Source: Acidobacteriota bacterium
GTDB lineage: Bacteria; Acidobacteriota; JAAYUB01
DNA: 64,000 nt
Direction: 5' to 3'
NCBI GenBank assembly: GCA_018001935.1
Contig: JAGNHB010000017.1
Location: 784-64,783, forward strand
Under the pieces are notes generated by a model that was not told the origin of the DNA, did no database searches, and saw only the letters and a program-made list of their open reading frames with translations. The position numbers and the translations under genes were made by a program. Within the stretch, counting starts at the first letter, position 1, and every line of letters starts with the position of its first letter. Shown here piece by piece: positions 1 to 60,565 of this stretch.

Positions 1-35
1 GATCGCCGAGGCCGACCGTCGTCCCGATCTGCTGA

Positions 36-2504
36 TTGAACCGGCGGCCGGCGGTGAGCCTCTTCAGACGTCCTGCCGCTCCATCCGGAAGCTGGAATGG
101 ATGCAGAAACGCCTGGAAGCGAACAGTTTCACGACCTTCTGGCCGTAGCGGGCGGCGGGCCATGCCTGACGTTCTCTCCGTCAAAACAGCCGTTTGGCAC
201 TTGACCGTCTGGACGAAAGACGCGGAATCCCCCTGCAGCCGCTTGGCCGCCATGCTGAAAACCCGGGGGAAAGAACTTTCTCCGAGCAGGATTCGCCTGT
301 CCCCCCCCTTGGAGATTCTGGACACCCATCCTCTGCCTGTATCGGCACTGCGTGAACAGGCGGACGAATTGGTTCTCCCCAAACCGGTCTTTTTTGAGAA
401 CAGATTGTACGAGTTCGATTTCCAGTTTTCTGGGGACATGGTCGATCTGCAGCCCCGGGTCGTCCACTGGAGGAAGGACATTGAGGACGGGTTCCACCAG
501 GCTGGAAAAAACCTGCGAGGGGGCATCCATTTCGGCAACGACATCGGGTGGTTCCGACTGGGCCTCGAATTCAGCTTAGGCGGGGCGCGCACCAGACAGC
601 ACCTCTCCTTTGAAGTTTTGCCGATCAAGATGGACTTGGACGGCGATTTCGGCATGATCTGCAAGGATGTGGACGCCGAATACCCGCTTTGGCGGCTTTC
701 TTTCGCCAGGAAGACGGAGCTGGAACTCGCCTCGTCGCGCTGGCCGTACGAGCGGTTCCCCTTGCTCTGGCTGGCTATGTTCCGGGTGCTCCGCCAGGAA
801 CTGGAGGATGCCGTTCGGCTGATCTGCCGATCACCTCACGCCCGGCTTCTGCCGGAAGGGCGTTTCCTGTGCCCGGACCGATTGCGGGGAAAGCTGCCGT
901 CGAAGCAGGAGGAGCGGGTGACCCGGGACCGCATGAACGGAGATCTGCACCGCCGATATCGGGTGGAAACCCGTCGGCTCTCGGTAGACACCCCGGAAAA
1001 CCGCTTTGTGAAGATGGTCCTGACCCGGTGCACGCGTGAACTGTCCGGCTTGGTCAGAAAAGCGCGGCAAAGTGACAGGGCCCCGGACCAAGGGCGGCTC
1101 AGCGATGCGTTTTTCCGAGAACTCCAGTCATGGTTGAAACCCTTGAAACAACGGCTGTCCGAACCACTGTTCCGGGAGACCGGTGATTTTGCGGGGCTGG
1201 CACACGAGTCGTTGGTGCTGCATTACCGAGCCGGCTACGCCAGGGTGTACCGCATATGGCAGGAACTCAAGCTCTACCTCGACCTGTTCGGACAGCGGGC
1301 GTCTGTCTGCCTGAAGTCCGCCGCCGAACTTTACGAGGTCTGGTGCCTGCTGGAAATTCGACGAATGCTGCTCTCCCTCGGGTTTGTTGAATCTATGGCC
1401 AGACGGGGGTCGCTGAAGACCTCCGGCCTGGAAAAAAAACTCGAGGACGGCATGGGGACCGCTTTCTGCTTCACCCGCCGCGACGGTCTGGAGGTCCGGC
1501 TAGCCCATGAACCGCTGTTCGGATTTTGGAATCAGACGGACACCCGGGGTATCTTTTCCTGGACTACGCCACAGAAACCGGACATTCTGCTGGAGGCGTC
1601 GTTTCCCGGCGGCCGCAGAATCCGTTGGGTTTTCGACGCCAAGTACCGTCTTTCTCCAGACGAAACCGGCGAAGACCGCATCCCCGAAGACGCCCTCAAC
1701 CAGATGCACCGATACCGTGACGCGCTGATCCATCTCGAACCGGCGGATGACGGGGTGGCCGAAAAAAGCCGTCCGGTGGTCGGCGCCTTCGTCCTGTACC
1801 CCGGGTTCTACGATGAAATTCTAAGGCCGAATCCGTACGAGGCGGGGATCGAAGCGGTAGGCATCGGCGGCTTCCCGATGTTGCCGGGGAGGGAGAATCG
1901 CTGGCTCAGGGCGTTTCTGAAGGAAAAATTCAGCGACCTTTCCGATGGCTATCTCACGGAGCATATTCCGGAATTCGACGAGCACCTGCTGCACGAGTCG
2001 GTGCGCATCGCGCCCACGGGGCTGAGATTGGCCCGCTACGGCGACCTGGTTCTGGCCGCCTCGCTGGGCGGGACCGCGGGCAGGGACGGCGCATATGTCG
2101 ACCGCTTTCTGACAGGCACGGCCAGCTGGTACCACATCCCGGTCAGCACCACTGACAAGAAAATCGCTCGAACCGTCATGCGCGAACTCCGATTCTGCGC
2201 TGTCGCTGTCCATCGCCCTGACATCCACGACCGATGCATCGAGTATTTGTACGACGTCCTTTCGGTCCGCCGGGTGAAGCGGTGTGAGCTGACCGTCGAG
2301 CAGGCCGGCAAGGTTGAAACCAGCAATCGGAACGACTATTGGCTTCTGCGGCTGGGCAATTCCAGGCGCCTCAAGGAACTGGTGAGCACGGGCGGAACCC
2401 GGCACTTCCGATTCCGACTGACCGGCGCCGCTGAAATCCTCGCTGCCTGTCGGTGGGATAACCTTCCGGATCGATACCCGCGCATCAGTTGCCCTGCGGA
2501 GTGA
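36..2504 (+). CDS. McrC-like PD-(D/E)XK nuclease-family protein (DUF2357/DUF524-like); N-terminus may continue upstream of the window
   Basis: 822-aa ORF with high GC3. It carries TPENRF (DTPENRFVKMVL) and D...E-A-K-like motifs (PDILLEASF...WVFDAKYR), typical of restriction-endonuclease-fold proteins of the DUF2357/DUF524 type. A 320-bp AT-rich gap follows. Confidence 0.6.
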   Translation: MNRRPAVSLFRRPAAPSGSWNGCRNAWKRTVSRPSGRSGRRAMPDVLSVKTAVWHLTVWTKDAESPCSRLAAMLKTRGKELSPSRIRLSPPLEILDTHPLPVSALREQADELVLPKPVFFENRLYEFDFQFSGDMVDLQPRVVHWRKDIEDGFHQAGKNLRGGIHFGNDIGWFRLGLEFSLGGARTRQHLSFEVLPIKMDLDGDFGMICKDVDAEYPLWRLSFARKTELELASSRWPYERFPLLWLAMFRVLRQELEDAVRLICRSPHARLLPEGRFLCPDRLRGKLPSKQEERVTRDRMNGDLHRRYRVETRRLSVDTPENRFVKMVLTRCTRELSGLVRKARQSDRAPDQGRLSDAFFRELQSWLKPLKQRLSEPLFRETGDFAGLAHESLVLHYRAGYARVYRIWQELKLYLDLFGQRASVCLKSAAELYEVWCLLEIRRMLLSLGFVESMARRGSLKTSGLEKKLEDGMGTAFCFTRRDGLEVRLAHEPLFGFWNQTDTRGIFSWTTPQKPDILLEASFPGGRRIRWVFDAKYRLSPDETGEDRIPEDALNQMHRYRDALIHLEPADDGVAEKSRPVVGAFVLYPGFYDEILRPNPYEAGIEAVGIGGFPMLPGRENRWLRAFLKEKFSDLSDGYLTEHIPEFDEHLLHESVRIAPTGLRLARYGDLVLAASLGGTAGRDGAYVDRFLTGTASWYHIPVSTTDKKIARTVMRELRFCAVAVHRPDIHDRCIEYLYDVLSVRRVKRCELTVEQAGKVETSNRNDYWLLRLGNSRRLKELVSTGGTRHFRFRLTGAAEILAACRWDNLPDRYPRISCPAE

Positions 2505-2794
2505 GGGATTCCGCACTTGCTTAGGGAATTTATGAATTTCATAATCAGCGTTTTTTTAGCGTTATTCGCGAGAGATCTCCTTTTCGTGACTTTTGCGGAC
2601 GCGGATAAGGTAAAGAATCTTTCGCACAATTGAGGGGTAGCCCGCCAATCTGCCGGAAGGTGAACTCCATGGCCGGCTGGCTTGTTTCTCCGGTTATTCC
2701 TTCGCAATCTTAAGTTTGCGCCATCCTTTCCGCGGATGAAACCGGTCGAAAACGGCAGCGAGAAGGTCAGGGGGGTAAAGCCAGAAAGACAATT

Positions 2795-2830
2795 GACAAT
2801 TTCACCTTGACAGGTGTAAATGGGAAGTGT
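2795..2830 (+). promoter_or_regulatory. sigma70-like promoter (TTGACA-18 bp-TAAATG) in AT-rich gap upstream of the SNF2 helicase gene
   Basis: gacaattgacaatttcaccttgacaggtgtaaatggg has a -35 TTGACA and a -10-like TAAATG at 18 bp spacing. Local GC is far below the window average. Confidence 0.3.
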
Positions 2831-2982
2831 TGGTTGTTTTCCCATGGCTTAGATGCGGGAACCCGGGCATGTCCCGGGCAGGGTTCATCTTGCCGATCCC
2901 CCGCCGGGGTCGGGACCGGTTAAACGGAATGGCGGCCTCGCGGTCGGCGCCCTGGCGGAGAGTTTCTCCGGGGAAAGGACGG

Positions 2983-6174
<3,192 letters not shown>

Positions 6175-6195
6175 CCGCTGTGGAGGAGGTACGCC

Positions 6196-7725
6196 ATGAT
6201 GGTGCAGAACACTGGCGGGAAGGGCCCTGGCGGGGCCGGTGCCGTCCGGACCGCCCGGGATGCGGGCCTGACCCGTCCCCTCGATCTTCACGTCGGGCTG
6301 GATTTCGGGACGTGCTTTACCAAGCTCTGCTGCCGCCACCTCGGGCGGGACGAGTCCTTCGTGGTCCGGTTGGGCGTCCTGGGGACGGGCCTGGAGGACG
6401 CCCTGATCCCGTCCGTGGTCGGCATCGCCCCGGACGGTCGGCTGGTCGGGGGCCTGACGGAAACCGAGTGGCGGAAGAACCCCGAGCCTTCGCTGCAGCG
6501 GGTCCGCTTCCTGAAAATGCTCCTGGCCGGCGGACGTGTCCCCCATCGGGCCATGAGCTGGGCCGGCGTCAGCGGCCTGAAAACGGCCGACGAGGACCGG
6601 ATCCGCGCCCTCAGCACCTACTTCATCTACCGGGTTCTGGACCGCTTCCGGGGTTGGGCCCGCCACCATTTTCTCGGAGCGGGCAGCACCCGGCCGCTTC
6701 GTCTGTCCTTCAGCCTGGGCGTGCCGGTGGAACAGTTCGACTCCCCGGCGCGGAGGACCTTCCAGGGGGTCCTGAACACCGCCTGCCGGTGGCTGGACGG
6801 CGGACCGATCGACGGCCCCTGGACGCTCGAGCGCGCGCTCAAGCTCATGGCTTCCGGCGAGGGGCGGGAATCCCGGGAGACCGTCGCGGACACGGTGCCG
6901 GAGATCGCCGCGGCGGTCCACGCCTTCCTCGCGTCCCGGCAGTCCCAGCGGGGGGTCTACTTCTACCTGGACATCGGCGGGGGAACCCTGGACGCCGTGG
7001 CCTTCAAACGGTGGGACAAGGACGGCGAGCCCCAGGTGAATTTCTACTGCGGCAAGGTGGAGCCGCTGGGCCTGGATGCCCTGTCCGAGGCCGCCGCGCG
7101 GCGGCTGGACCGGGAGCCGGGAAGCCTCCTGCACTACCTGTCGCGCTCGGAGCCCGGACCCGGGAAGCGTGCGGTTAACCCCCCGGCACCGCGTTTCAGC
7201 TGGATGAAAGGGAAGGAGCCCGCCATGCGGTCCACGGGCCCGGCGAGTCCTGGCCCGGTCGCTGACGAGGGCATTTTTACGCTGCTCGAGCCGGAGCGAC
7301 GGCTGATTCACCGCCAGGTGGGGACCGTGCTGGCGACCTCCCTCAAGAAGGACCCCGTCGCCTTCCGGGCCGGCCGGGGCGACAACCCCTTCCAGAAAGA
7401 CCCGGGGGAGAAGATCTGGGTTTTTTCCGGCGGCGGCGGGGCGGCGTCTACGTTCTATGCGGAGGCCGTGGACGAAGCCTGGCGGCTTCGGCTGAAGCAG
7501 TGCGGGCTGCCGGGGCTCAGCCGCCAGGTCATCGAGGTCCCGGGAGACCTGGAGTTTCTCGGGCTGCCGGCCAGCAGTTACCGTCGCTTCGACATCGCCT
7601 ACGGCTTGTCCATCCCGGAGGAGGACCGTTTCCGGGCCTGGATGCCGAGCCTCTTCGAGCCGCAGGAGGAAGATTCCGGCGCGGCCCGGGGGCTGGACCA
7701 CGTCGACACCCACGACTGGCAGTAG
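6196..7725 (+). CDS. Hsp70/actin-fold (ASKHA) ATPase, NBD-only, no Hsp70 substrate-binding domain
   Basis: Phosphate-1 GLDFGTCFTK, IPSVVGI (compare Hsp70 TPSVVAF), phosphate-2 DIGGGTLDAVAF. RBS GGAGGAGG sits 8 nt upstream. It lies 21 bp after the SNF2 stop. Confidence 0.65.
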   Translation: MMVQNTGGKGPGGAGAVRTARDAGLTRPLDLHVGLDFGTCFTKLCCRHLGRDESFVVRLGVLGTGLEDALIPSVVGIAPDGRLVGGLTETEWRKNPEPSLQRVRFLKMLLAGGRVPHRAMSWAGVSGLKTADEDRIRALSTYFIYRVLDRFRGWARHHFLGAGSTRPLRLSFSLGVPVEQFDSPARRTFQGVLNTACRWLDGGPIDGPWTLERALKLMASGEGRESRETVADTVPEIAAAVHAFLASRQSQRGVYFYLDIGGGTLDAVAFKRWDKDGEPQVNFYCGKVEPLGLDALSEAAARRLDREPGSLLHYLSRSEPGPGKRAVNPPAPRFSWMKGKEPAMRSTGPASPGPVADEGIFTLLEPERRLIHRQVGTVLATSLKKDPVAFRAGRGDNPFQKDPGEKIWVFSGGGGAASTFYAEAVDEAWRLRLKQCGLPGLSRQVIEVPGDLEFLGLPASSYRRFDIAYGLSIPEEDRFRAWMPSLFEPQEEDSGAARGLDHVDTHDWQ

Positions 7726-7743
7726 GGATTGGCCAGCGTTGAT

Positions 7744-7838
7744 GCGTTCGTAAAAAGTACCATCACCCTCCGGGTGATGGCTCAAACAAAGGCTTTACAG
7801 ACACTTTTCCGTCCGTTTTCCGACTTTTTGCGAGGACA
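7744..7838. repeat. IR-L: ~92-bp repeat unit (GC hairpin ccatcaccctccgggtgatgg + T-run on minus strand) in inverted copy relative to 11885..11975
   Basis: The reverse complement matches 11885..11975 nearly base for base (cgcaaaaagtcggaaaacggacg.aaaagtgtctgtaaagcctttgtttgagccatcaccc.gagggtga.ggtactttttgcg). Confidence 0.8.
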
Positions 7839-8286
7839 TCAGCGTTGAGAAATAACTGCTTTTGCTGCAAAAATTTCGCCCCTGGCGGGGCGAGGCGTTC
7901 CCCGCCAGGGTCGACCGGGCCTGCGGTTTTCCGGCGCCGCCTCCGGGGCGCAAGGATTTTCAAATGGCCCGCAACCGGCGGGAGTACCCCCTGCCGGGGG
8001 AACACCCGCCGGCTAATCTCTTTTATCCCTTCGGGATAGGGATTGCCTGGGTGCGGGTTGTTCGCGTTGTGGTTACACAGAATGAAGCCCTGACGGGGTT
8101 CTCCCCGTGCGGTTTGTTCGTCATCGGCCCGGGTTACCCGGGGCGTTCGAAGCGGAGGACGAACCCCTTGCCCGCACCGGCCTTGCCCCGGGTCCCGAGC
8201 GAAGCGCCCCTTTTCCCGCCAGCGTCCCGCCCGGATCCCGACGTCGTCCCGCCCGCGCCCCGCCCGGATCGCGGCCGTTGGCTCTT

Positions 8287-8455
8287 CACCCCGTCAGGGG
8301 TGAAATGTTTGTAGAATAAGCGGTTATCAAGAGTTCCCCCCGCGCGCCGCCGGCCCGGGATGGCGCCCCGCGGCACGATCTCCCCCCGGCGGCGCGCGGG
8401 AGGGGGTGTTTTATAAACCGTTTTACTACAAATGTTTCACCCCTGACGGGGTGAG
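8287..8455. mobile_element. Complete MITE/REP-like composite element (copy A): 30-bp terminal inverted repeats caccccgtcaggggtgaaatgtttgtagaa flanking a ~70-bp GC palindrome cccccgcgcgccgccgg...ccggcggcgcgcggg
   Basis: TIRs sit at 8287-8316 and 8427-8455 with 2 mismatches. The internal hairpin is shared with copies at 22291, 35100 and 60269. Confidence 0.6.
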
Positions 8456-8675
8456 GGCGCGAGGGGGTGACGGGATTGCGGTGGGGTGACGGCGTACGGC
8501 TCGCCCGGCGTACGCGCGCCGAGCCGAGGCGCGCGCCCGGCCGAGGGGGCGTCGGGGGGGGTTACCGCCGGGCTCGGCTCGCCCGGCGTACGGCTCGCTG
8601 TTCGCGGCCGAATGGACGGCCACCCCGCCGCCCTCGCTCCCGGGGTTGCCCCCCCCGCGCTTTCGAATGCGCGGG

Positions 8676-11600
8676 CTACTCGCGGATGCAATTGCGCCCG
8701 TCGCGCTTGGCGCGGTAGAGGGCCGCGTCCGCGGCGGCGACGAGGTCCGCCGGGGCGGCCCGTTCGTCCGGCTTCACCCAGGCCGCGCCGATGCTGACGG
8801 TGACCCGGGGTGACACCGGGGAGGCCGGGTGGGGCAGCCCCAGCGCCTCGACGTGGCGGCGGACGAGTGCGGCGGAGATCAGCACGCTCTCGCGGTTTGC
8901 CCCCGGGACGATCACGGCGAACTCCTCCCCGCCGTACCGGGCGGTGATCTCGCCGGCCCGGGTGTGGGAGTCGGCGATCGCCCCCGCCACGAGCCGGAGA
9001 CACTCGTCGCCGGCCTGGTGCCCCAGCGCGTCGTTGTACTGCTTGAAGTGGTCGATGTCCAGGATCAGCAGGCCCAGCGCCTCCCGCCCCCGCAGGGCGC
9101 GGCGCCACTCCTCGTCCAGCGCCTGGTCGAAGCGCCGGCGGTTCGCGATCCCGGTCAGCGGGTCCTGCTGGGAGAGCTGGTCGAGCCGGGCGTTCGCCGC
9201 CGCCAGTTCCGCGGTGCGCAACGCCACCACCTTCTCGAGCGCCGCCTTCTGGCGGGAGAGATGCCGGGTGCGGAACCGGTAGAGGAACGCCCCCGACAGG
9301 ACCAGGAGCACCATGACGCCCGCCCGGAACCCGACGTGCTGCCACCAGGCGGGGAGGACCTCGATGGGGATCTCGAGGGGGGCGGTCTCGAGGCCGGCCG
9401 CGTCGCGCCCCTTCACCTGCAGGAGGTAGCGCCCGGGCGGAAGCGCCCCGAAGACCCGCTCGTTCGTCTCGACCCAGGGGCCCGGGTGGGGGTCGTAGCC
9501 CAGGAGCTGCCAACTGAAACGGTTCTCGTTTTCCCGCTGCCAGGACAGGAGGGCCACCTTGAACGACAGCTCCCGGGTCGAGGAGGGAATGCACACCGGC
9601 GCCCCCGCCACCTCCCCGCCGTCGGCCTGCACCCGCATCAGCCGCAGCGGTTTGGGGTGCTGCTCGGGGACCGCCCCGGTCGGGTCGTAGACCGACAGGC
9701 CGCCCATGGTGCCGCACCAGTACCGGCCGAGCGTGTCGACGAACTGGGCGTTGGTGTTGCACTCCTCGTGAAGGAGGCCGTCGCGGCGGACGAACACCCG
9801 TTCGTCCCACCCGCCGGACGCCTTCGGGGTCAGCAGCTGCACCCCCGCGTCGGTCGACACGAAAACCCGCCCCCGCGGGTCCCGGATCGCCTGGTAGGCG
9901 GTGGGGACCGGCGGGCGGGGCAATTCGTCCCCCGGCAGCACCCGCGGCCGGAGCGGGTCGGTGATGTCGACGCGGATGATCCCGCTGTTCAGGCTGCCGG
10001 CCCAGAGTATGGGTTTCCCCTCCCGGTCCGGGATGAGCGTGAGCCCCAGCAGGTGGATGTCGGGCAACCCGTCCCCCCGGCCCAGGAAGGTCCAGTCGGT
10101 CCCGTCGAACCGGGCCAGGCCCTGGCTGGTGGTGGCCCACAGCCACGACCGGTCGTCGGCGTCTTTCGACGCCACGATCCGCGTCACCTGCAGGCGTTCG
10201 GAAGCGGACGACGGAAAGGCGGCCCAGCGGCCTTCGCGAAACCGGTACATCCCGCTCTTGCGGGTCGCCACCCAGAGTTCCCGGGCCCCGTCGAAAAACC
10301 GGGAAAGGACGTCCATCACGTGCTGGCCGGCTTCCTTGGGCCAGGGCGTCGGAACGGTTTCGAAGACGGGCCCCTCCCGCACCCGCACCAGTTCCCCGGG
10401 GACGACGGCCGTGAAGAGCGTCGGCTGCCCCTTTTCGTCGGGCGCCCGGACCAGCAGGCGGGAGTTGGAACCCGGCAGGGTGCTGTTCGAGCTGTTGAAG
10501 GTCCTCCACTGCCCGTCCTGGTAAAGGCCGAGGCCGTCACCCGAGGACGCCACCCAGAGGCGCTCGCCGCCGTGCCCGTCCGGCTCCGCCAGGACCCCGA
10601 AGACGCCGTTGGACCGGGAACCGAGGAGCGACACGGTCCGCCAGGGGCTGCCGCCGAGGACGGTCCGCGCCAGCCCCCCCTCGGTGGCCAGCCAGAGGAC
10701 CTCGATGCCCTCGGGGCTCCTCCAGAGGTGCACGTTGCGCACCGCATTCGAGGGAAGCCCGTGACTGCGGCCGAAGGCCTGAACCTGCTCCCCGTTGACG
10801 CGCACCAGGCCGCCGCGCGTCGCCGCCCAGAGGGTGGGCTCCCCGCCGGGAGCGGCGCCGGCCGCCAGGGAGTAGACGATCCGGGTCTCCATCCCGGCCT
10901 CGGTGTCCGCCAGGTTGCGGATGCCCTCGTCGGTGAGCCGGAACAGGCCGGCCCCGTAGGTCGCGATCCAGAGTTCCTCCACCCCGCGGCGACGGACCGT
11001 CAGGAGGTCCTGCACCTGGGCCACCTGCGCCGGGGTGAACCCCGGGGCGCTGAAGCGCTGCCAGGCGCCGCCGCTCTCGCGATACCAGAGCCCTTCGTTG
11101 TTGGTGGAGACCCACAGGCGTTCCCGACCCCCGATTTCCCAGGTTCGGGCCAGGCCGTTGAGGCACCCGGGCGGAAGCTGCCGGTTGCCGGGGTCGGCTC
11201 GCCACCGCCCCGCCACGCGCTGGAAAAGGCCGGCGTCCAGGGTCAGCGCCCAGGTTTCCGTTTCCCCGACGCGGACCGGGACTTCGACCACCCGGAAAAT
11301 CCGTCCGGCCGGGAGCCCGCTTTCCGGCCCCTCGATGTGCCAGCCGGCGGCATCGAGCCGTCCCAGAGCGGAACTGGTGGACGGGGCCCAGAGGTTCCCC
11401 TCGTGGTCGAGCAGGAGGTTTTCCACCACCCCCTGGAGGCCGGGCACCCGGACGGGCTCCCAGCGGTGGCCGTCGTAGCGGTAGAGGCCCTGGGGCGAAC
11501 CCAGCCAGACAAAGCCCACGGCATCGGTGGCCACGGAGACGACCGTGGTGTCCGGCGCGCCGTCCGAGGCGGTGAAGGTCCGGAACGCCGGCAGGCCCAG

Positions 11601-22290: not shown

Positions 22291-22640
22291 TTTCCCCCGC
22301 GCGCCGCCGGGGGTGAAGCGTGCTCCGAAGCACCCTTCCGGCCGGCGGCGCGCGGGGGAGGAGAATCATTATAACTACCTTTTCTACAAACATTTCACCC
22401 CTGACGGGGTGAGGACGCAGAGGGCATGATCCCGGCGGGGTGGAGACGCGGCAGGCACGCCCCACACGGGATGAGGACGCAGAGGGCATGATCCCGGCGG
22501 GGTGGAGACGCGGCAGGCACGCCCCACACGGGATGAGGACGCGGCAGGCACGATCCCGGTGGGTCGGGACGCGGCGGGCACGACCAATGCGCGGTGAAGA
22601 CACGAAAGGCCACGATCCGCACGGAACAAAGGGGTGGCGA
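22291..22640. repeat. Composite repeat copy B: GC palindrome + 31-bp TIR-like block ttctacaaacatttcacccctgacggggtga + ~7 degenerate 30-31-bp tandem units
   Basis: Contains tttcccccgcgcgccgccgg...ccggcggcgcgcggggg. The TIR is followed by contiguous units of consensus GGGTGAGGACGCGGCAGGCACGATCCCGGCG with no spacers. Confidence 0.7.
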
Positions 22641-34851: not shown

Positions 34852-35180
34852 GGGATCGTACCCGCCGCGTCATCACCCCGTGTGGGGCGTGCCTGCCGCG
34901 TCCCCACCCCGCCGGGATCGTACCCGCCGCGTCTTCACCCCGTCAGGATCGTACCCGCCGCGCCCTCGCCCCGCCGGGATCGTACCCGCCGCGTCTTCAC
35001 CCCGTCAGGATCGTACCCGCCGCGCCCTCGCCCCGCCGGGATCATGCCCTCTGCGCCTTCACCCCGTTAGGGGTGAAATGTTTGTAGAAAAGGCAGTTAT
35101 AGAGATTGTTTTCCCCCGCGCGCCGCCGGTCCGGGAGGGTGCTCCGGAGCACGGTTTACCCCCGGCGGCGCGCGGGGGAA
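34852..35180. repeat. Composite repeat copy C (inverted relative to copy B): ~6 alternating 31-bp tandem units, TIR caccccgttaggggtgaaatgtttgtagaa, GC palindrome
   Basis: Units of gatcgtacccgccgcgtcttcaccccgtcag alternate with gatcgtacccgccgcgccctcgccccgccgg. The array ends in the TIR and the cccccgcgcgccgccgg hairpin. Confidence 0.7.
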
Positions 35181-60268: not shown

Positions 60269-60565
60269 TTTCCCCCGCGCGCCGCAGGGTCCTCACCCCG
60301 TCAGGTTAAATGTTGGTATTAAAAGAGGTTATTTTTCATTCCCCCCGCGCGCCGCCGGGGGTTTACCATACTCCGGAGCGCCCTCCCGGCCGGCGGCGCG
60401 CGGGGGAGGAGAATATTTATAACTGCCTTTTCTACAAATATTTCACCCCTGACGGGGTGAAGACGCGGCGGGCACGATCCCGGCGGGTCGAGGGCATGGC
60501 GGGCACGATCCACACGGGGCGAGAACGCGGCGGGCACGATCCCGACAGAGTGGGGACGCGGTGTA
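60269..60565. repeat. Composite repeat copy D: degenerate hairpin+TIR half copy, full GC palindrome, TIR ttctacaaatatttcacccctgacggggtga, ~4 tandem 30-bp units
   Basis: Same architecture as copies B and C. The tandem units are gacgcggcgggcacgatcccggcgggtcgagg and similar. Confidence 0.7.

Follow-up and report, generated by a model that had tools for sequence, protein, structure and literature searches.

The three large genes at the left end of the window, a 64-kb stretch of acidobacterial DNA, are all real, and they form two units. At least 74 bacterial genomes have inherited the second and third genes, which encode an SNF2 helicase and an Hsp70-like ATPase, as one unit, in different phyla and on plasmids too. 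This cassette is probably an undescribed anti-phage or anti-plasmid module. For the region as a whole we lean, though only a little, towards the following reading. Unit A is a McrBC remnant of the NxD McrB branch, and Unit B is an autonomous two-gene operon of an SNF2 protein and an Hsp70-NBD-like protein. Both would be independent and horizontally mobile, lying here side by side, and the SNF2/ATPase pair would interfere with invading DNA without cutting it. The genomic context makes a defence role for Unit B plausible.

An ORF scan of the window found three same-strand ORFs at the coordinates that the first-pass annotation had given for its three large genes in one orientation. The region reads as follows.

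2..148, plus strand: McrB-like AAA+ (GTPase-type) gene of which only the 3′ end lies inside the left edge of the window; the frame ends with TAG at 146-148
162..2504, plus strand: ORF1, McrC-type nuclease, 780 aa, with a DUF2357 N-terminal domain, a PD-(D/E)xK nuclease and a C-terminal region
2505..2982, no strand: intergenic region between the two systems, of lower GC (0.54)
2983..6174, plus strand: SNF2-family helicase/translocase of the RapA/DrmD/BrxHII-like clade, 1063 aa (Pfam, PADLOC, NCBIfam)
6182..6189, plus strand: Shine-Dalgarno-like GGAGGAGG, seen by direct inspection, 6 nt before the ATG of ORF3
6196..7725, plus strand: ORF3, Hsp70/Hsp110-NBD-like ASKHA ATPase, 509 aa, no substrate-binding domain
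7760..7780, plus strand: short hairpin with a 9-bp stem and a 3-nt loop, seen by direct inspection, 35 nt past the stop of ORF3

The McrB-like fragment upstream of ORF1 was left unmentioned by the first-pass annotation. This gene is the partner of ORF1 and stands outside the SNF2/ATPase pair. Its motif GTVNMDETT is the NxD-E variant of the McrB signature (PMC11090510), and its homologues carry the name "McrB family protein". Logan contig L085 has a longer fragment, of 276 aa, which shares 33% identity (E 1e-16) with the "AAA family ATPase" encoded ahead of a DUF2357 gene on a Caballeronia plasmid. The McrB-like protein in the source Acidobacteria MAG has 297 aa, compared with ∼410-430 aa in homologues, and Walker A and B are absent from it. 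Going by the MAG gene call, the gene is apparently truncated at its N-terminus in this genome.

ORF1 likely starts at ATG 162, and gene calling on an independent assembly gave the identical product. In NCBI, ORF1 is listed as "restriction endonuclease-like protein" (MBP7866033.1). Its earlier description as a DUF2357/DUF524 PD-(D/E)XK nuclease agrees with Pfam, where both DUF2357 (E 1.7e-56) and PDDEXK_7, the former DUF524 (E 1.4e-39), were matched. The nuclease motif (PD...DAK) is intact, with PDILLE at residue 473 and FDAKY at residue 491. The C-terminal ∼180-190 residues have no Pfam match. On plasmids, homologues of ORF1 lie directly after AAA/McrB-like genes, often with a methyltransferase. 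ORF1 and the McrB-like gene make up a separate and possibly decayed McrBC restriction system.

The first-pass annotation had instead joined the McrC-like nuclease, as effector, to the SNF2 and Hsp70-like proteins in one system. The shared orientation and adjacency in the window favour this, as does the pairing of Hsp70-like domains with McrBC-type systems in CoCoNuTs (PMC11090510). However, homologues of ORF1 were found within 10 kb of the pair at none of 80 related genome loci, nor at the metagenome or plasmid loci. We reject a three-gene module because ORF1 lacks such homologues near other pairs, has its own McrB-like partner upstream, and has a 478-nt gap and a GC step between it and the SNF2 gene; we give the single-system model hardly any credence. 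GC is 0.605 in ORF1 and 0.68-0.70 in the pair. The latter is near the window average of 0.66, so composition gives no foreign mark here.

The gap between ORF1 and the SNF2 gene had been described as AT-rich with a sigma70-like promoter. Its GC of 0.54 is indeed lower than that of the genes (0.61-0.70), and TTGACA boxes are present at 2793 and 2807. However, a consensus scan found no sigma-70 promoter in 2400-3100, as the -10 candidate TAAATG fails the rule. The same kind of scan gave no terminator, and no Rfam family was matched in the gap. We presume that the promoter of the SNF2 operon lies in 2505..2982.

The SNF2 gene starts at ATG 2983 and its product matches Pfam SNF2-rel_dom and Helicase_C. 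The PADLOC DrmD model PDLC02623 aligns from position 3 to 1014 of 1040 (E 1.5e-277), which upholds the earlier suggestion that the protein is DrmD-like. Its N- and C-terminal extensions had been called non-canonical. They are not unusual: the same model spans the whole protein, and flanking domains at both ends are typical of the RapA/BrxHII SNF2 clade (PMC12839542). Among solved structures, RapA is the closest (E 1e-34). Conservation of motifs I, II, III and VI (GLGKT 155, DEAH 272, TATP 302 and QRIGR 645) is 95% or higher across 65 orthologues. No nuclease-type D...(D/E)xK is conserved in the C-terminal region of these 65 proteins.

ORF3 begins 21 nt past the SNF2 stop and has its own putative ribosome-binding site, as first annotated. 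The proposed actin/Hsp70 (ASKHA) fold and its restriction to a nucleotide-binding domain were also confirmed, with Hsp70/Hsp110 domains as the best structural matches. Invariant residues are D36 and G38 of phosphate-1, E236 of the EPxAAA-like PEIAAAV, and D259 and G261 of phosphate-2. For the other positions of DxGGGTxD and for the GGG adenosine motif, conservation ranges from 90% to complete. The protein family is without a name.

Downstream of ORF3, an inverted repeat had been reported at 7744. It is in fact the hairpin at 7760-7780, which is below the length limit of the repeat finder. The hairpin has no T tract and may mark the end of the operon. The MITE-like element further on was found at 8286-8454 with inverted ends of 45 nt. 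Its 28-nt terminus has three further copies in the window, compared with 0 expected.

Relatives were found with a single peptide pattern, which matched 208 stretches in a collection of 185,579 species genomes. The adjacency count is from the best 80 of these 208 loci, which are not independent because many come from related cyanobacteria. A full-length SNF2 orthologue adjoins the ATPase gene in 74 of the 80, and one further locus has a truncated SNF2 remnant. The adjacency was also seen in metagenome loci and on four plasmids, so that the tight coupling noticed in the window extends well beyond it. The orthologues are 40-50% identical to the window SNF2 over residues 27-1061; on two of the four plasmids the SNF2 protein is only 34% identical. 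Both gene orders occur, with a median intergenic gap of 1 nt in one and 29 nt in the other. The two genes are often translationally coupled. Both proteins have conserved ATPase sites. Their identity matrices are closely correlated (r = 0.958, Mantel p = 0.001, 65 loci), a value to which common descent of the host loci also contributes.

The pair has no conserved third member. Every other gene family is confined to 8 or fewer of 84 loci. Pfam places the 120 immediate neighbours in 178 families, each of them seen in 4 proteins at most. Hosts among the best 80 of 208 are 49 cyanobacteria, 19 alphaproteobacteria, 6 gammaproteobacteria and 3 spirochaetes; the window host is an acidobacterium. The distribution is patchy, with most copies on chromosomes and some on plasmids. 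Neither protein has a recognisable nuclease, toxin or pore domain, and phage and viral collections contain no member of the family.

Defence genes are sometimes found near the pair, including Hachiman, Hma, ARMADA-like genes, CRISPR and PDC-S68. In the window the neighbour is the McrBC system. On an Aminobacter conjugative plasmid the pair is flanked on one side by a RecB-like nuclease, an AAA ATPase and a restriction endonuclease, and on the other by Hachiman, a restriction endonuclease and AbiEii. On a Leptolyngbya plasmid it adjoins type I-D cas1/cas2 and transposases, and in Rivularia a NACHT-WD40 protein follows it. Rhizobiales loci have HmaB and HmaC upstream and PDC-S68 downstream. The L006, L040 and JGI loci described below add to this defence and mobility context. 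At many loci, especially on cyanobacterial chromosomes, the neighbours are instead housekeeping genes, for example those for ABC transporters and aminotransferases.

The defence-type neighbours raise the possibility that the pair is an accessory helicase module of larger DISARM-, ARMADA- or Hma-type modification-restriction systems. SNF2 would then take the role of DrmD, BrxHII or HmaA, the Hsp70-like protein would be an add-on, and the window copy would be an orphan after gene loss. The full-length PADLOC DrmD match fits this model, as do several loci with YprA/MZB or DrmD-like plus methylase neighbours. Locus L006 has a YprA/MZB helicase and a second DrmD-like SNF2 directly upstream, and L040 has a DrmD-like SNF2 and an Eco57I-type methylase directly downstream. 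At a JGI locus, in an integrase/DUF927 island, the pair is followed by SNF2, an Eco57I-type methylase and a YprA/MZB helicase. Three loci (L028, L039 and L054) have HmaB and HmaC upstream with no other HmaA candidate in between, and a Sphingobium plasmid has a PLD-like protein downstream. However, neighbours of this kind are limited to fewer than about 10 of the 84 loci and vary by locus, and at most loci the surrounding 10 kb are free of methylase, YprA and PLD genes. A tblastn search of the 64-kb window with one representative each of YprA/MZB, PglX-like methylase, PLD, HmaB, HmaC and PDC-S68 gave no match. L006, L040 and the JGI locus already hold a separate canonical DrmD/BrxHII-like SNF2; therefore the pair there is additional and is not the system's own helicase. 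We regard the accessory role as possible but doubtful.

A housekeeping or stress role, in which a RapA-like SNF2 recycles or removes stalled RNA polymerase or other DNA-bound proteins with the aid of a chaperone-like ATPase, seems unlikely. RapA is the closest solved relative, neither protein has a nuclease or toxin domain, phage and viral collections lack the family, and several cyanobacterial loci are syntenic with metabolic genes. However, the window SNF2 reached 175 bits against the NCBIfam RapA model, far under the equivalog cut-off of 576, and therefore is not a RapA orthologue. The first-pass annotation would have abandoned its module for a RapA orthologue with no co-conserved Hsp70-like gene; here the Hsp70-like gene is co-conserved. 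Moreover, the 208 matches are few and lie in scattered phyla, flanking genes differ even within genera, and the pair is carried by conjugative and mobilizable plasmids and by an integrase island. An actin-like (ParM/MreB-type), filament-forming ATPase in a pair that segregates or maintains mobile DNA, with no part in defence, is very improbable: most copies are chromosomal, pair-bearing plasmids have their own ParA/ParB genes, no conserved centromere-binding adaptor gene adjoins the pair, and the best structural matches are to Hsp70/Hsp110 domains.

Under the preferred reading, of an autonomous interference module, the linkage of the two genes suggests that SNF2 and the Hsp70-like ATPase form a complex. 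By analogy with RapA, DrmD and BrxHII, the SNF2 motor may track along DNA or act on DNA-bound polymerase. The Hsp70-like subunit could serve as a switch or clamp, driven by ATP, for gating, loading or localising the motor, comparable to stable atypical Hsp70 subunits (Ssz1, Hsp110) or to the actin/Arp modules of eukaryotic SNF2 remodellers. The complex would interfere with invading phage or plasmid DNA without cutting it, and might act alone or beside neighbouring nuclease/methylase systems.

The pair matches no system in PADLOC v2, NCBIfam 20, Pfam or the searchable literature and catalogues, in line with the first impression that no named system combines these proteins. DrmD of class 1 DISARM has the same architecture along the full SNF2 length, with motor motifs intact. 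However, the window SNF2 falls below the NCBIfam DISARM_DrmD equivalog cut-off (402 against 610 bits), and its conserved partner is an Hsp70-like ATPase. Counterparts of DrmA, DrmB, DrmC and DrmMI were found neither in the window nor in most related loci. The DISARM gene list of Ofir et al. 2018 reportedly contains no Hsp70-like ATPase. RapA and the BrxHII-like helicases of BREX type 3 and ARMADA belong to the same bacterial SNF2 clade, but the window SNF2 is without PglX/PglZ or YprA genes, and the few related loci with such genes also hold a second, canonical BrxHII/DrmD-like helicase.

McrBC type IV restriction of the NxD branch is comparable only to ORF1 and its upstream partner, which likewise place a McrC homologue (DUF2357 and PD-(D/E)xK) directly after a McrB-like NxD-E gene. 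The differences are the 297-aa McrB-like protein of the MAG without Walker A and B, and about 190 extra C-terminal residues in ORF1 with no recognised domain.

DrmD-like helicases have been recruited into diverse defence systems, including ARMADA (PMC12458937) and ietHAS (PMC13069673), where the DrmD-like SNF2 is an essential, regulatory add-on. These are a precedent for such recruitment, but the ietHAS partners are a protease and an AAA ATPase, whereas here the partner is an Hsp70-like ATPase only. Hsp70-family proteins, some without a peptide-binding domain, are dedicated parts of bacterial conflict systems (PMC7159879). The GTPase-centred systems, enriched in multicellular bacteria such as cyanobacteria (Kaur et al. 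2020, PMC7159879), are in contrast built on DO/GAP1-N2 GTPases, tubulin, GrpE and DnaJ, with no SNF2 partner described. CnuD of CoCoNuT, a McrBC-derived system, is likewise an Hsp70-fold protein dedicated to a nucleic-acid-directed conflict system. As described, CnuD combines a substrate-binding domain with HEAT repeats, its ATPase motifs are degenerate and its partners are McrB/McrC homologues; this description sets it apart from ORF3, which is an NBD only, has fully conserved catalytic residues and is partnered with SNF2. Eukaryotic SNF2 remodellers with actin/Arp modules (INO80, SWR1, SWI/SNF-BAF) also count among the closest known systems.

Three ORFs on the same strand were called at 36–7725 of the window, behind a McrB-like gene that is cut by the left edge. 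The features of this stretch are as follows.

2–148: 3′ end of the McrB-like gene (Logan contig L085:2-832; protein P0156)
Likely start ATG 162: ORF1, 780 aa, MBP7866033.1, "restriction endonuclease-like protein"
Likely start ATG 2983, same strand: SNF2 gene, 1063 aa, SNF2-rel_dom and Helicase_C
6196–7725, same strand: ORF3, 509 aa, MBP7866035.1, "hypothetical protein"

The 780-aa product of ORF1 was also called, exactly, on an independent Logan assembly. Between the SNF2 stop and the start of ORF3 there are 21 nt, and GGAGGAGG precedes ORF3. The gap between ORF1 and the SNF2 gene is 478 nt with a GC content of 0.54. GC content is 0.605 in ORF1, and 0.68–0.70 in the SNF2 gene and ORF3. A foreign origin of the SNF2/ORF3 pair by composition was rejected, since its GC content is near the mean of the whole window (0.66). 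TTGACA boxes are present in the 478-nt gap; a consensus sigma-70 promoter, a terminator and an Rfam family were looked for there and not found. Window 1–9000 was also searched for promoter consensus, terminator consensus and Rfam families, and none was found. The DNA downstream of ORF3 is non-coding. A MITE-like element of ∼170 nt lies at 8286–8454, where 45-nt imperfect terminal inverted repeats flank a GC-rich internal palindrome. Its 28-nt end recurs at 22384–22411, 35060–35087 and 60432–60459 with at most 1 mismatch (0 expected by chance).

The SNF2 and ATPase genes are a co-inherited two-gene operon, mobile between phyla and onto plasmids. When each species was represented by one genome, a scan yielded 208 stretches encoding an ORF3 relative, and the best 80 of these were examined. 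All 80 loci were selected with a single peptide pattern, and they cluster in the phylogeny (49 cyanobacteria, 19 alphaproteobacteria, 6 gammaproteobacteria, mostly Arenicellales, 3 spirochaetes and 3 unclassified); ORF boundaries were set by a simple longest-ORF caller. In 74 of the best 80, an SNF2 orthologue lies directly beside the ATPase gene, and these orthologues are 40–50% identical over residues 27–1061 or cut only by the contig end. The other loci include one with an SNF2 remnant and one that is uninformative at a contig end. The same pairing was found in three metagenome loci and on plasmids of Leptolyngbya, Cyanobacterium, Aminobacter and Sphingobium. The SNF2 proteins of Aminobacter and Sphingobium are only 34% identical to that of the window, and their ATPase partners were recognised by profile comparison (99.4–99.9% probability).

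Both gene orders occur. When the SNF2 gene comes first, the ATPase has ∼450–540 aa and the median gap is 1 nt. When the ATPase gene comes first, mostly in cyanobacteria, the ATPase has ∼700–890 aa and the median gap is 29 nt. Across 65 loci, the pairwise identities of the SNF2 and ATPase proteins are correlated (r = 0.958, Mantel p = 0.001); this points to joint inheritance and does not demonstrate contact between the proteins. No third gene is conserved, as ORF clustering placed no other family in more than 8 of 84 loci; the Pfam matches of the 120 immediate neighbours are spread over 178 families, and no family occurs in more than 4 proteins. In phage and viral collections, the ORF3 family was not found beyond one short 54-aa match. 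At two cyanobacterial loci (L072:3362-4798 and L073:8596-9969), the ATPase homologue is preceded by a 457–478-aa protein that is not SNF2; these two proteins share 30% identity, belong to no recognised family and lack a Pfam match.

The PADLOC DrmD model PDLC02623 spans the SNF2 protein end to end (E 1.5e-277). On the NCBIfam equivalogs, the protein scored 402 bits for DISARM_DrmD (cut-off 610) and 175.5 bits for RapA (cut-off 576), below the cut-off in both cases. The closest solved structure is RapA (E 1e-34). In an alignment of 65 SNF2 orthologues, the motor motifs ADEVGLGKTIE, DEAHYxRN, LLTATPxQN and QRIGRxDR are at least 95% conserved, and conserved positions are scattered over the C-terminal 300 residues. 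An active nuclease at the C-terminus was rejected, as this region has no conserved D...(D/E)xK and no invariant lysine. A C-terminus of this kind agrees with the RapA/BrxHII architecture, which combines a Tudor domain, the motor, an endonuclease fold that is inactive and an alpha+beta domain (PMC12839542). The flanking extensions, first taken as non-canonical, turned out to be ordinary for the DrmD/RapA clade. Together, the model matches, the conserved motor motifs and the fitting architecture point to an active-looking DrmD/RapA-clade translocase.

ORF3 has no match in Pfam (E≤0.01), NCBIfam or PHROGs. Its single PADLOC match is weak (PDC-M61B, E 4e-4, over the phosphate-1 region), and a PDB profile search gave only E 0.054 to an Hsp70. 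The family emerged by exhaustive HMM profile search, with 2396 cluster representatives at E<1e-3 and 331 at E<1e-30; a word-indexed search returned just 5 homologues, with either one sequence or an 80-sequence alignment. By exact look-up, the 509-aa form is unmatched and a 508-aa form is found only on 2–3 kb contigs. In the 80-sequence alignment, G34, D36, G38 and K43 (phosphate 1), K107, G413, D259 and G261 of DIGGGTLD (phosphate 2), and E236 in PEIAAAV, the counterpart of Hsp70 EPTAAA, are invariant. G263, T264 and D266 of DIGGGTLD and G414/G415 of the adenosine GGG motif are at least 90% conserved. ORF3 carries an Hsp70-type nucleotide-binding domain with its catalytic residues.

The AlphaFold model of ORF3 built from the 80-sequence alignment has a pLDDT of 85.5 and a pTM of 0.86; a model from 5 sequences (pLDDT 49.8) was set aside. 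A short C-terminal region follows the nucleotide-binding domain, and the substrate-binding domain and lid are absent. Among the nearest structural relatives are Ssz1 and Hsp110, two atypical Hsp70s acting as stable subunits or regulators and not as folding machines. ORF3 has the Hsp70 nucleotide-binding fold, yet the missing substrate-binding domain and the lack of a Pfam match mean that it is not an Hsp70 chaperone. A proline/glycine-rich insertion at residues ∼306–357 (window 7111–7266) is of low confidence, predicted to be disordered, and specific to the acidobacterial protein, being absent from all aligned homologues. The cyanobacterial ATPases, with reversed gene order, carry a 250–450-aa N-terminal extension of coiled-coil character (for example at loci L014:9023-11368, L016:3112-5793 and L086:8128-10362; proteins P0042, P0054, P0069 and P0136). 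The extension has only weak matches, to myosin tail, apolipoprotein and crescentin. SNF2–ATPase fusions were rejected, as the long family members carry these coiled-coil extensions and have no SNF2 domain.

The first-pass annotation was largely right in the sequence features that it observed, and had joined all three genes into one candidate conflict/defence module of nuclease, SNF2 helicase and Hsp70-fold ATPase. That grouping did not hold, and ORF1 belongs to a different, McrBC-type system. ORF1 is set apart from the SNF2 gene and ORF3 by the 478-nt gap, by the GC step and by a tblastn result: at none of the other loci did an ORF1 homologue turn up within 10 kb of the pair. ORF1 has the DUF2357 N-terminal domain (Pfam, E 1.7e-56) and the PD-(D/E)xK nuclease (PDDEXK_7, E 1.4e-39) of McrC, with the nuclease residues PD...DAK intact. 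Its last 180 residues (window 1962–2504) lie beyond residue ∼596, the limit of alignment with plasmid homologues, and may correspond to an additional domain of the sort reported as fused to McrC in the NxD branch.

The Logan contig recovered DNA from 845 nt upstream through ORF1 and lengthened the McrB-like gene to 276 aa. This fragment is 33% identical (E 1e-16) to an "AAA family ATPase" encoded on a Caballeronia plasmid, directly upstream of a DUF2357 gene, and its database homologues bear the name "McrB family protein". Its GTVNMDETT is the rare NxD-then-E variant of the McrB signature, which marks a large, uncharacterised McrBC branch according to Bell et al. (PMC11090510). The close homologues have 410–430 aa and begin at the P-loop, without a coiled-coil extension. 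In the Acidobacteria MAG from which the window comes, the McrB-like protein has 297 aa and is missing the N-terminal stretch that contains their Walker A (GISGTGKT) and Walker B (LDEMNLAP). For this reason the McrBC pair may be decayed in this genome, going by the MAG gene call. The contig of the independent assembly ends 845 nt upstream of ORF1, near the alignment end of the MAG McrB-like protein, and there may be an insertion or a repeat where this protein stops aligning with its homologues.

Some pair loci are plainly defence or mobile islands, and defence neighbours of the pair are frequent, though not universal.

Neighbours of the pair in selected loci.
Aminobacter conjugative plasmid, one side: RecB-like nuclease, AAA ATPase, restriction endonuclease
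Aminobacter conjugative plasmid, other side: Hachiman (HamA and helicase), restriction endonuclease, AbiEii
Leptolyngbya plasmid: type I-D cas1/cas2, transposases
Cyanobacterium plasmid: toxin-antitoxin genes, XerD
Three Rhizobiales loci (L028, L039, L054): HmaB and HmaC upstream; Hma neighbours in these only
Nine alphaproteobacterial loci: PDC-S68 (PADLOC candidate) adjoining the pair, usually directly downstream
JGI locus, integrase/DUF927 island: downstream SNF2, Eco57I-type methylase, YprA/MZB helicase (ARMADA-like)
Loci L006 and L040: similar DISARM/ARMADA-like neighbours
Rivularia: NACHT-WD40 protein downstream
Sphingobium plasmid: PLD-like protein and GIY-YIG nuclease downstream

PDC-S68 is a single-gene candidate system of PADLOC, a RecD-like helicase of ∼1250 aa. 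Its copies (L028, L031, L037, L038, L039, L054, L055, L060 and L069; at ∼11.3–15.3 kb in each locus) diverge down to 37% identity. The gene often overlaps the pair; in L055 it has the opposite orientation, and in L037 it is apparently fused to an HKD-Snf2 protein. In these loci the module may exist in a three-gene form, made up of the pair and PDC-S68. The conjugative plasmid of Sphingobium sp. CAP-1 (L091, 7995–17660) has a deep-branching pair with an ATPase of 587 aa; downstream of it, the same strand encodes a 533-aa protein without a Pfam match, an 822-aa PLD-like protein and the GIY-YIG nuclease. On plasmid pMETHO01 of Methanomethylovorans hollandica (L093, 9722–16206), the gene that starts 6 nt after a related SNF2 gene (28% identical) encodes an "HSP90 family" protein of 1113 aa in place of the Hsp70-like one, and a RelE toxin and restriction genes lie next to these two. 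The arrangement may parallel the pair of the window, with another chaperone-fold ATPase beside an SNF2.

Both ATPase sites of the pair are conserved, and a nuclease or toxin domain is not recognisable in either protein. In the reading that we lean towards, at slightly better than even chances, the SNF2 and Hsp70-like proteins would form a complex. SNF2 would translocate on DNA or act on a DNA-bound polymerase, as is thought for RapA, DrmD and BrxHII, and the Hsp70-like subunit would serve as an ATP-driven switch for gating or positioning the SNF2 motor. Foreign DNA would be interfered with but not cut, by the pair alone or with neighbouring systems. The main rival, which we consider rather unlikely, is that the pair is an accessory of DISARM-, ARMADA- or Hma-type systems. 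Such genes do stand beside the pair in the Rhizobiales loci, the JGI locus, L006 and L040. In the 64-kb window, tblastn with one representative each, a search of limited sensitivity, found none of YprA/MZB, PglX-like methylase, PLD, HmaB, HmaC and PDC-S68. A housekeeping, RapA-like role is less probable again. Many cyanobacterial chromosomal loci have ordinary metabolic neighbours and the solved structure nearest to SNF2 is RapA; the distribution of the pair is patchy, with plasmid copies and varying flanks, unlike the conserved single-copy chromosomal RapA.

A more specific form of the gated-motor reading is less likely than not. The pair would be a so far undescribed, stable two-subunit, nuclease-free anti-phage or anti-plasmid system on its own, with an ASKHA-fold ATPase gating a chromatin-remodeller-type motor. 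If true, the pair would give bacteria a counterpart, convergent or not, to the actin/Arp modules of eukaryotic SNF2 remodellers, and a permanent pairing of an SNF2 motor with an actin/Hsp70-fold ATPase would bear on the origin and logic of remodeller–Arp modules. The archaeal pairing of SNF2 with an Hsp90-family protein on a plasmid is a hint that defence modules combining an SNF2 motor with a chaperone-fold ATPase may form a broader class, so far unrecognised. DrmD/BrxHII-type SNF2 helicases belong to the core of DISARM, BREX type 3 and ARMADA. With a single dedicated partner and neither methylase nor nuclease, a minimal two-gene version would offer an easier way of studying how these motors recognise or disable foreign DNA. 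The partner family of ∼2,400 cluster representatives has no Pfam, NCBIfam, PHROG or PADLOC model. If the pair defends, current defence-finding tools overlook it in cyanobacteria and rhizobia, whose phage resistance is relevant to algal culture and crop inoculants.

Compared with DISARM class 1, the SNF2 protein matches the PADLOC DrmD full length but stays below the NCBIfam DISARM_DrmD cut-off. Flanking ORFs at the window locus are the McrC-like and Hsp70-like genes. DrmA/DrmB (YprA-type helicase, DUF1998/MZB), the DrmC PLD nuclease and the DrmMI methyltransferase were not found in the window by tblastn with one representative each. Compared with ARMADA types I and II, the window has SNF2 only and no YprA or methylase match. 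Compared with Hma, the HmaA model gave E 1.7e-36 on SNF2, far behind the DrmD model, and HmaB (DUF1156 methylase) and HmaC (DUF499 ATPase) were not found in the window by tblastn. The locus does not qualify as DISARM, ARMADA or Hma, because their other defining genes are absent from the window by these one-representative searches.

CoCoNuTs have a coiled-coil McrB fusion, usually a nuclease-dead McrC, and HEPN or another nuclease nearby, whereas the ORF1 nuclease motif is intact and the McrB-like homologues are short. CnuD of CoCoNuT type III is by description an Hsp70-like protein with NBD and SBD; ORF3 has no SBD, and in other loci the family is paired with SNF2. CnuD works with McrBC homologues and has no SNF2 partner (PMC11090510), and the Hsp70-like proteins of GTPase-centred conflict systems also have none (PMC7159879). 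DrmD-like helicases have been recruited elsewhere, in ARMADA (PMC12458937) and ietHAS (PMC13069673). An SNF2 and Hsp70-NBD pair is described in no paper that we found and by none of the models of PADLOC v2, NCBIfam 20 and Pfam, and the ATPase partner is labelled "hypothetical protein" in GenBank and RefSeq records. The pair is a well-supported two-gene module that has apparently not been described previously. The SNF2 protein resembles DrmD and BrxHII and would work like them, and the pair, with a function that we infer, appears to sit within the known kind of SNF2-helicase-based defence modules.
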